A stretch of DNA of 64,000 nt from a virus (taxonomy: Duplodnaviria; Caudoviricetes), in the IMG/VR virus record IMGVR_UViG_2706795719_000001, positions 1-64,000 of that record, one strand, 5' to 3'. Shown in pieces: positions 3,023 through 64,000 of the stretch. How positions within the stretch are numbered: the first letter of the stretch is position 1; each line of letters starts with the position of its first letter. The notes below the pieces were generated by a model that worked only from the letters and a program-made list of their open reading frames with translations, did not search any database and was not told the origin of the DNA. The position numbers were made by a program, and so were the translations under genes.

Positions 3023-3809
3023 TTTTAACCTCGTAATATTCTGTATTTGGTTTCCAGCCTTGTTTAAACATATTTAAGGCCTTCGCGTATAATTTACTTC
3101 GTTTTTCTATTCCTGACTTCTTCATCCATTTAGCAACACCAGTTGCTTTTGGGCGAGATTCATCATAATTTGTTATATACCAGTTGTATAGAGACTCTAT
3201 ATTAACAATAGATTCCTTTTCAGCACCAAACTTATTAAACCAGGGTCTAGAATCATTTACTTCTTTAGCTCTTTTTGTTGCATTATTCCAGTTACCAATG
3301 CCCTTAAGCCCAAGTTCATTTATTTTAGGGTCATCAACTTTGAGACGGTATATTTTCCCTGATTCATCCTTAAAATTTGTTACACCTTTTTCGCCTTCAA
3401 ATCTATTTCCGAAATTGTTTCCAACCCATTCATCTTTATTAAATGTTCCTTTAACAAGCAATTTGCATTTTCCAGTTTTAACATTTCTCATAGATACTTT
3501 ATCAGACATAAATGCTTTAGACCATTTACTAACTGCTTTTCTATGGGCCTTTCTTGCGAATTCATAAGATCGAGAATTTTTATTAGAGTTCAACATTCTA
3601 CCTAAAGCGAAAGCCATTTCTTTGTTTCTATGTATTTTATACAATAACAAATGAGCAAAGAAATGTTCTCTACATGTAAGCTTTACTAAATTAGATTTGT
3701 CGTTTGACCCACCCATAGATCTAGGTACAATGTGATGAATTTCGCCTTCTTCGGCAGGATTTTCCTGCCGAATTTTAATTAAACTATTATATATTTTAGA
3801 GTAATTCAC
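3000..3809 (-). mobile_element. mobA: free-standing HNH homing endonuclease, MobA-like
   Basis: EIHHIVPRSMGGSNDKSNLVKLTCREHFFAHLLL HNH motif; lies between genes 39 and 60, the mobA position in T4. Confidence 0.85.
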
Positions 3810-63012: not shown

Positions 63013-63086
63013 AATAGATCCTTGTTTGTTTAGGTGGAATAATATTAACATATAAAAGTATAAAGCAATAATTAAATATCAAAAAC

Positions 63087-63115
63087 AAAAAAGGTCCAAC
63101 ATTTCTGTGGACCTT
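63087..63115 (-). terminator. terminator after the tRNA cluster
   Basis: AAGGUCCA/UGGACCUU stem followed by UUUU. Confidence 0.72.
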
Positions 63116-63228: not shown

Positions 63229-63320
63229 TGGAAGAGAGTATGGGATTCGAACCCATGGAGCACCTTCCAGTACCCAACGGTTTTCAAGACCGTCTCATTA
63301 AACCTCTCTGACAACTCTCC
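63229..63320 (-). tRNA. tRNA-Ser(UGA)
   Basis: ACGGT-CT-TGA-AA-ACCGT, long variable arm, GTTCGAATC, encoded CCA. Confidence 0.92.
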
Positions 63321-63324
63321 AAAA

Positions 63325-63645
63325 TTAAAATATCATGTTATAAATTGAACCTTTACCAAAATCAATTTGCTGGGTTTTAGAATATTCTTTAAATAGTTCA
63401 AAATCACCAATTAATTCGGGTTCCCATTGTCCTTCTAAACCATAACATGAACAATGCGAGCCATGTACTTCCCAAAATTGTCCTAATATATCGGCATAAA
63501 TTACAATAGCGCATCCACAATAATCTTCACAATCATAATAAGCTAAAACAATTTCTTTATCTGCTAAAACATCTGTTGGAATTTGGAATTCATTACAAAT
63601 ATCTTCTTTGGAAGTAAACAAATCCATAAATACATTAGTTTTCAT
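63325..63645 (-). CDS. hypothetical protein within the tRNA cluster
   Basis: 106 aa with GAGG SD, EVHGSHCSCYGLEGQWEPE. Confidence 0.65.
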   Translation of the reverse strand: MKTNVFMDLFTSKEDICNEFQIPTDVLADKEIVLAYYDCEDYCGCAIVIYADILGQFWEVHGSHCSCYGLEGQWEPELIGDFELFKEYSKTQQIDFGKGSIYNMIF

Positions 63646-63664: not shown

Positions 63665-63740
63665 TGGCGGTCTTACCGAGAATCGAACTCGGTGCTGTTC
63701 CGTGACAGGGAACTATGTTAACCAGGTACACCATAAGACC
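63665..63740 (-). tRNA. tRNA-Asp(GUC)
   Basis: GTTCC-CT-GTC-AC-GGAAC, GTTCGATTC, encoded CCA. Confidence 0.93.
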
Positions 63741-63761
63741 TAAAAATGTACCCATCCGGTT

Positions 63762-63937
63762 TTCCAGTTTGGTGAAGGGTTGTCACCTCTAGTTTTAACC
63801 TGCTAGTCAAGTAATAATTGCATATCGTCCAAATTATCAATCCCGTCTAGGTTATATTACACCACTTCCTAGAATACCAGAGATCTTGTTCTGGATTTAA
63901 TCGACGTAGCTTACACCATATACGCCTGACTGTGGAA
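63762..63937 (-). ncRNA. candidate structured ncRNA
   Basis: six consecutive hairpins within a bulged terminal stem, no long ORF, located between two tRNA genes. Confidence 0.55.
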
Positions 63938-63939
63938 TT

Positions 63940-64000
63940 TGGAGCGACCTAGGAGAATTGAACTCCTATCTTCTGGGTGGAAGCCAGAAATAATACCCGC
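63940..64000 (-). tRNA. tRNA-Gly(UCC), 5' end outside the window
   Basis: TCTGG-CT-TCC-AC-CCAGA, GTTCAATTC, encoded CCA. Confidence 0.88.

Follow-up and report, generated by a model that had tools for sequence, protein, structure and literature searches.

Comparative sequence analysis identified the interval between tRNA-Gly and tRNA-Asp as the gene for a non-coding RNA of ~188 nt, encoded on the minus strand together with the surrounding tRNA cluster and belonging to an uncatalogued family. The predicted fold, which is well supported by covariation, comprises five local hairpins and two pseudoknots, one formed by the 5' end with the loop of hairpin P3, the other a compact H-type pseudoknot within the 3' half. 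Genome comparison shows an accessory cassette, exchanged among large virulent phages that are unrelated to one another and present or absent among near-identical sisters.

The window (the whole stretch of DNA that was analysed) comprises bases 1-64000 of a 161,989-bp virus record, and its closest relative, with 94% identity across the 900 bp around the locus, is the T4-like Bragavirus Proteus phage PM2. At its end lies a tRNA cluster on the minus strand, ordered Arg, Tyr, Met, Pro, a small ORF, Gly, the RNA element, Asp, a 106-aa ORF, Ser and Glu. tRNA-Gly(UCC) has an encoded CCA that ends at 63940, and tRNA-Asp(GUC) occupies 63665-63740, starting at 63740. An initial annotation had placed a candidate RNA between these tRNAs on the minus strand, a location that the tRNA calls bear out; the gene is indeed there, but the interval proposed for it (63762-63937) was slightly shorter than the true unit (Table 1). 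A covariance model (R1), built from 12 copies, matched the window at 63750-63940 with 211.7 bits over model positions 1-188, and this was the only copy in the genome of the window phage. All helices of the double-pseudoknot family are formed in the window copy. The gene boundaries agree with the indel relative to the sister phages phiP4-3 and SJ_PmiM, and with the start of transcription in jumbo phages.

The element interval contained no ORF of more than 40 aa, and neither ARAGORN nor Infernal called a tRNA or T-arm within 63741-63942, while the flanking tRNAs were called; the earlier view that the region is neither coding nor a tRNA was therefore upheld. The element was also richer in G+C (~40%) than nearby non-tRNA sequence (~27-36%), as had been claimed. 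A coding reading from an invariant AUG in the 3' block was rejected: the downstream frames are unrelated among copies and span 7-37 codons.

Table 1. Features of the RNA gene in the window and their coordinates.
Feature	Positions	Strand	Description
Whole RNA gene	63750..63939	-	~188 nt conserved; from the base after the tRNA-Gly CCA to just beyond the invariant 3' UGG block
Pseudoknot 1, 5' strand	63932..63935	-	Pairs with 63862-63865 in the P3 loop
Hairpin P1	63899..63931	-	Hairpin 1 of the initial annotation plus three outer pairs; conserved hexaloop
Hairpin P2	63877..63894	-	Hairpin 2 of the initial annotation; 18/18 members by independent folding
Hairpin P3	63846..63873	-	Hairpin 3 of the initial annotation; loop carries the 3' strand of pseudoknot 1 (63862-63865)
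Junction J3/4	63839..63845	-	Single-stranded; near-invariant in all clades
Hairpin P4	63813..63838	-	Hairpin 4 of the initial annotation; invariant 7-nt block in the loop
Pseudoknot 2, H-type	63789..63812	-	S1, 63808-63812/63798-63802; S2, 63803-63806/63789-63792
Hairpin P6	63771..63787	-	Hairpin 6 of the initial annotation; 5-bp stem and 7-nt loop ending in three invariant bases
Tail segment	63764..63767	-	Three bases past P6; complementary to the S2 3' strand, 63789-63792
Invariant 3'-terminal block with UGG	63752..63755	-	Conservation ends directly after
A/U-rich trailer	63741..63749	-	Reaches the tRNA-Asp 5' end; part of the inserted cassette, not conserved

Several other features of the cluster were recorded. 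A hairpin followed by a T-run after tRNA-Glu (63081-63115, minus strand) resembles an intrinsic terminator and probably ends the tRNA operon; it has a 9-nt loop and was missed by the consensus scan for that reason. The 106-aa ORF between tRNA-Asp and tRNA-Ser (63325-63645, minus strand) is Cys/His-rich in paired motifs, is kept in PM2, Shigella phage vB_SdyM_006 (SdyM006), phiP4-3 and SJ_PmiM, and may encode a small zinc-binding protein; a Pfam search gave no family for it, and the ORFs on either side of the jumbo-phage copies of the element are unrelated to it. The tRNA-Ser(UGA) at 63229-63320 scored 53 bits with the Rfam tRNA model, was also called by ARAGORN, and looks intact; its equivalent in PM2 (3704-3792 of the extracted locus) is labelled a pseudo-tRNA in the PM2 record.

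A BLAST search with the element as sole query matched 53 phage records. These included PM2 (97.5%) and SdyM006 (89%), both Bragaviruses, the T4-like Morganella phage vB_Mm5, ~35 jumbo phages of the 121Q/PBECO4/RaK2/K64-1 type (87-92%) and three T5-like Proteus phages (86%), with more distant matches in Aeromonas phages 65 and avDM6 and in Klebsiella phage KP13-16. A second round with avDM6 as the query added ~15 further Aeromonas T4-like phages. R1 found full-length matches at 18 distinct loci (100-218 bits), drawn from six phage lineages and three metagenome contigs. In each annotated record the copy sat within a tRNA island and shared the strand of the tRNAs; the copy itself was either unannotated or overlain by a doubtful small ORF. 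The record of vB_Mm5 puts all of its tRNAs opposite the CDS strand; ARAGORN places the flanking tRNAs (Phe and Glu) on the strand of the element, and the tRNA strands in that record therefore look wrong (locus L005, 200-2600). An ORF just upstream of the element in the same phage (1086-1499) matched a YadA-like membrane anchor domain (PF03895, E = 1.8e-12), which is unusual for a phage.

No match was obtained in 5,426 complete E. coli genomes or among the plasmids of PLSDB. A scan of contigs from 185,579 bacterial species with the most conserved 3' motif gave chance hits only; five pattern hits were rejected because they scored 8 bits or had no R1 match. Pattern scans of IMG/VR returned known isolates only. 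Rfam 15, which holds ROOL, GOLLD, wcaG, ToxI, T-box, RNase P, tmRNA, 6S and a set of self-cleaving ribozymes, yielded no family in a 4-kb scan at E up to 1, and only two chance-level hits (11-12 bits) when the element alone was scanned at E up to 10. Literature searches found no published description of this RNA family, and the main text of a 2023 survey that reports 10,006 viral structured-RNA candidates (PMC10690425) contains no mention of jumbo phages, Escherichia phages or Klebsiella. The novelty proposed initially thus withstood comparison with both Rfam and the T4 species I/II RNAs, in that neither a family nor homology was found.

The initial annotation had also looked to folding energy better than that of shuffled controls. 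The single window sequence did not provide this (z = -0.70; 47 of 200 shuffles folded as well). By energy the claim would fail, and the case must therefore rest on comparative evidence. Registers were fixed from invariant anchors, and 18 sequences were scored against two controls, slid partner strands and 1000 shuffles. The 18 sequences represent only ~5 independent clades, and the events behind the covariation counts are accordingly few; the shuffle control ignores relatedness. Slid controls were 0-73% paired, and shuffles matched the observed pairing between 0 and 4 times in 1000 for P3, P4, S1, S2, P6, the tail helix and pseudoknot 1. The covariation among homologs supports a novel structured non-coding RNA, as had been proposed.

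P1 was recovered by independent RNAfold runs in 18 of 18 members despite differing stem letters, with visible compensatory changes, and P2 varied in both stem length and letters in SdyM006, a T5-like phage, KP13-16 and contig L022. The six pairs of P3 and the six of P4 were each 100% paired in the 18 sequences, with double-sided changes at 6/6 and 4/6 positions, respectively. The window copy of P4 carries a private 1-nt U insertion at the stem-loop boundary (63820-63838, minus strand), which either bulges out or shortens the stem and leaves a loop of 12 nt; in the 17 other members P4 has an 8-bp stem and, in the close group, a 9-nt loop. P6 was 100% paired with one double-sided position, its fourth pair being G-C, A-U or U-A. 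Long runs of invariant unpaired bases occupy the loops and junctions. G-U pairs recur in the helices of the family where the other strand would give A-C, which assigns the RNA to the tRNA strand.

The six hairpins proposed in the initial annotation were therefore all present and accompanied by compensatory changes in relatives, but the global arrangement in which they had been placed was not retained. The fifth is not a plain hairpin, its stem being one of the two helices (S2) in an H-type pseudoknot. Of the 7 pairs of the bulged closing stem, 6-7 form in the window and close relatives but only 2-3 in the Aeromonas phages and KP13-16, without compensation. The proposed kiss between loops 5 and 6 retains 1-3 of 4 pairs in distant clades, likewise uncompensated, and the 5' strand of the supposed loop belongs to helix S1. 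Two pseudoknots supported by covariation take the place of these contacts. Pseudoknot 1 was paired in 82% of cells across the 18 sequences, against 27-62% with a slid partner, a level reached by 0 of 1000 shuffles, and one of its positions is C-G, G-C or U-A in three different clades. Pseudoknot 2 has a 5-bp S1, a 1-nt first loop, a 4-bp S2 and an A-rich 5-nt third loop; S1 and S2 were both 100% paired in the 18 sequences, each with two double-sided positions and 0 of 1000 shuffles as good, and S1 was also found by RNAalifold unaided. Tertiary pairings between loops 1 and 4, and between a loop or junction and the P6 loop, were considered by eye and rejected, being of no more than 3 bp with no informative covariation.

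These results bear on the suggestion that the RNA is a protein sponge or decoy, displaying the same octamer in two hairpin loops of a structure closed by a 5'-3' stem. Both octamers are present, at 63911-63918 and 63857-63864, 54 nt apart, and the window as a whole contains four copies of the octamer against 2.3 expected. Formation of the closing stem is feasible in the window sequence and in close relatives. However, most of the second copy at the element serves as the 3' strand of pseudoknot 1. Nor is the repeat a conserved trait of the family: jumbo-phage copies share just 5 of 8 letters at the second site, the Aeromonas copies lack the repeat, and the KP13-16 copy also differs at the second site. 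Neither the closing stem nor the kiss is maintained in distant clades, and the element contains no tandem repeats, its sole direct repeat being that of 8 nt. The reasoning from repeated loops to a sponge or decoy does not hold, and a sponge built in this manner is improbable. A sponge for CsrA was also rejected: of the three GGA motifs in the window copy, the one in the P4 loop and the one immediately preceding the 3' UGG have no counterpart at those positions in the Aeromonas clade. The RNA might conceivably still serve as a decoy or in counter-defence.

The 3' strand of S2 has a second potential partner. Three pairs between this strand and the tail segment were 100% paired in the 18 sequences (4 of 1000 shuffles did as well), and two Aeromonas phages, CC2 and AS-zj, show concerted changes in the shared strand, in its S2 partner and in the tail segment. 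As the two pairings of 63789-63792 are mutually exclusive, the 3' domain is probably two-state. Covariation of a single 4-nt strand with two partners makes it likely that the domain switches between the pseudoknot and an extended hairpin, a reading based on three pairs and essentially three evolutionary events. A small tail hairpin (P7) that would compete with the tail helix failed in the Aeromonas clade.

A two-state 3' domain invites the interpretation that the RNA is a tRNA-end-binding or ligand-sensing switch, in which the invariant UGG pairs with tRNA CCA ends and the alternative pairing reads the binding event. The bulge of T-box RNAs and loop 15 of RNase P pair with tRNA CCA ends. In the present family the UGG block is invariant, single-stranded and at the 3' edge of an element that sits in a tRNA array (ZPAH1 is the only member with a change in the block, a single one just before UGG), and one strand has mutually exclusive covarying partners. 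Against this, the complementarity amounts to merely 3-4 nt, the purine after UGG would match only the rarer tRNAs with a pyrimidine discriminator and does not track the neighbouring tRNA, no T-box or wcaG model matched, and there is no conserved downstream gene to regulate. In this specific form, the switch is unlikely. Somewhat less doubtful, though still tentative, is a bistable trans-acting RNA that would recognise tRNA ends, or a host defence enzyme directed at tRNA or RNA, through its invariant loops and UGG, and flip on binding. Were that so, the RNA would be an RNA-only device for counter-defence or tRNA-pool control, traded as a cassette among the tRNA arrays of unrelated virulent phages.

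The ends of the element indicate how the RNA might be made. In the window phage, PM2, SdyM006, the T5-like phages, KP13-16 and contig L022 the element starts at the base after an encoded CCA, and the same start was found in four of the five Aeromonas phages examined, phage 65 having no tRNA call directly upstream. Four different tRNAs (Gly, Leu, Pro and Leu) precede these CCA-adjacent copies. In 121Q-type jumbo phages and contig L016 the 5' end instead lies 6-8 nt downstream of a near-consensus sigma-70 promoter. None of the copies in the jumbo phages, RaK2, L016 and Mm5 is immediately preceded by a tRNA; most of them follow a promoter. That one 5' end is reached by either processing or initiation argues for a discrete trans-acting RNA, and against any need for 5' self-cleavage.

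A cis-acting processing element or self-cleaving ribozyme, which would cut its own 5' end and free the 3' CCA of the upstream tRNA, would account for a start exactly after the encoded CCA in five lineages, and for a pseudoknotted core with many invariant unpaired bases. HDV-like 'theta' ribozymes of gut phages have been proposed to free tRNA 3' CCA ends in this way. However, in the jumbo phages and L016 the element begins at a promoter and no tRNA precedes it, from which it follows that the family needs no 5' cut. In addition, no Rfam ribozyme model matched, the strand order is unlike that of the HDV-like nested double pseudoknot, and sister phages mature the same tRNA-Gly without the element. 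A ribozyme of this kind is thus quite unlikely.

The favoured proposal is that host tRNA-processing nucleases would release a discrete RNA. The 3' side would be freed by the RNase P cut at the 5' end of tRNA-Asp, and the 5' side by an endonucleolytic cut in A/U-rich bases after the tRNA-Gly CCA; the flank beyond the invariant UGG block is A/U-rich as well. The initial annotation had reasoned that processing of the flanking tRNAs would release the RNA, and the placement of the gene agrees with this. From these features we infer that the locus gives rise to a discrete, stable RNA. The element and the next tRNA are separated by an additional 65-90 nt in the Aeromonas phages and in KP13-16. These segments hold a conserved hairpin with a 7-bp stem in three Aeromonas loci, the 3' side running into CCA (L006 1633-1720, L010 1633-1722 and L030 1388-1475), and a T-arm-like sequence after the element in KP13-16 (L007 1579-1643); they may represent a second small RNA or a tRNA fragment.

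The accessory nature of the gene was apparent from comparisons of sister phages. In the Bragaviruses phiP4-3 and SJ_PmiM the near-identical tRNA-Gly and tRNA-Asp are only 2-4 bases apart and the element is precisely absent, whereas the window phage, PM2 and SdyM006 carry an insertion of ~200 bp between them. In the Escherichia jumbo phage G17 all that is left of the RNA gene in the syntenic gap is its first 36 nt (L035 801-836), and the same 36-nt remnant was seen between the same flanking ORFs in phAPEC6, Sharanji and other phages, i.e., in some Asteriusvirus genomes. This deletion remnant indicates that the RNA is dispensable in that genus. Between the Bragaviruses and the jumbo phages the element is better conserved than the adjoining tRNA-Gly, for which there was no match, and within the close group compensatory changes occur in SdyM006, L016, RaK2 and the T5-like phage. 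These two observations point to horizontal exchange followed by selection on the fold. Homing endonuclease genes near some copies are possible vehicles for tRNA-island cassettes: in SdyM006 a SegD/SegB-like GIY-YIG gene (L004 838-1443) overlaps the start of tRNA-Gly upstream of the element, and HNH endonuclease genes lie near the copies in WPEC5 and ZPAH1.

The high identity between unrelated phages, together with the homing endonuclease genes near some clusters, might instead reflect recent DNA transfer of a spacer or homing-endonuclease target with no function of its own. Compensatory changes, however, keep eight helices even in clades that are 70-75% identical, the G-U pairs are strand-specific, and the jumbo phages provide a dedicated promoter. 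A non-functional spacer is largely refuted by the covariation, and may be regarded as extremely unlikely. That the gene has passed among T4-like, T5-like and jumbo phages speaks for a portable function, independent of phage background.

No protein gene was conserved next to the element across its copies, nor was any downstream gene: the neighbours vary between tRNA-Asp, Glu, Ser or Thr and unrelated small ORFs. A riboswitch or cis-regulatory leader was rejected since no conserved ORF follows the invariant 3' block and no regulated gene is in a fixed place; no riboswitch model matched in Rfam either. Another reading considered is that the RNA imitates a type III antitoxin or otherwise acts as a decoy for one particular RNase toxin of the host. 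Type III antitoxins are pseudoknots encoded as tandem repeats of ~34-36 nt, and phages reportedly escape ToxIN with antitoxin-like RNAs, which the present RNA may resemble. ToxN enzymes cut at A-rich sites (PMC8860590), and an A-rich site precedes the element. The element has neither tandem repeat units nor an Rfam match of any kind, and such a mimic is very unlikely.

The account that we favour, with somewhat more confidence than doubt, combines these elements: a double-pseudoknot non-coding RNA of the tRNA cluster, carried on a mobile cassette and released by nucleases, that would act early as a trans-acting binder with a switchable 3' domain and confer a conditional advantage. The RNA would fold into a compact double-pseudoknot body, be expressed early, and bind in trans a conserved host partner, or one related to tRNA or translation, via its invariant loops and 3' block. 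The benefit would be conditional and host-dependent, of the host-takeover or counter-defence kind; such a role is suggested only by analogy, from the accessory status, patchy distribution, early promoter and tRNA-array context of the gene.

The orphan structured RNAs of phage tRNA islands (T4 species 1/2, ROOL and GOLLD) have been unexplained for decades. The present family is of a size that suits structural work, and the phages that carry it are culturable (coliphages and phages of Proteus, Klebsiella and Aeromonas). Natural pairs with and without the element would ease genetics, namely PM2 or the window phage with phiP4-3 or SJ_PmiM, and 121Q with G17. If a role in counter-defence or tRNA-pool control is correct, the family adds an RNA-only player to the conflict between phage and host, and helps to explain the non-tRNA passengers of tRNA arrays.

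The family is new, but the kind of phage RNA to which it belongs is a known one, though unexplained. Two highly expressed non-coding RNAs, ncRNA001 and ncRNA002, have been described in the related jumbo phage PA5oct (PMC7318152), and were rejected as homologs (best score 7.8 bits with filters off). The wcaG motif (RF01761) is, like the present RNA, an orphan phage RNA of H-type pseudoknots and hairpins. Its model gave no match at E up to 10, its module order differs, and wcaG-type RNAs are a chain of repeated modules, whereas the present RNA is a single integrated fold. The geometry of pseudoknot 2 is that of the luteovirus frameshift and preQ1-I aptamer type. It differs from those H-type classes in being one module of a 188-nt RNA and in lacking a reading frame, an Rfam match and a second loop able to house a ligand pocket.

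ROOL and GOLLD resemble the present RNA in being elaborate pseudoknotted RNAs of phages and prophages, often beside tRNA islands, with no known function (PMC12286853). They differ in length (~500-800 nt), in occurring mostly in Gram-positive hosts and in forming multimeric cages, and neither model matched the element. The shared genomic context (PMC12286853), conserved loops that could make intermolecular contacts, and a pseudoknot helix that is palindromic in most members might suggest that the RNA self-assembles into a small RNA-only particle. The RNA is, however, three- to fourfold smaller than either ROOL or GOLLD, shows no homology to them, and has lost the palindrome in CC2, AS-zj and KP13-16; a particle of this type is highly improbable.

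The closest parallel in context is provided by T4 species 1 (rnaC, 139 nt) and species 2 (rnaD, 119 nt), which are likewise small non-tRNA non-coding RNAs on the tRNA strand of a T4-type tRNA cluster. Both are stable RNAs, dispensable and with no known function. Neither aligned with the present RNA, and R1 found nothing in T4 69500-74500; moreover, rnaC has a tRNA-like T arm, which the present RNA lacks. Unlike rnaC and rnaD, the family described here also occurs in T5-like, jumbo and other phages.
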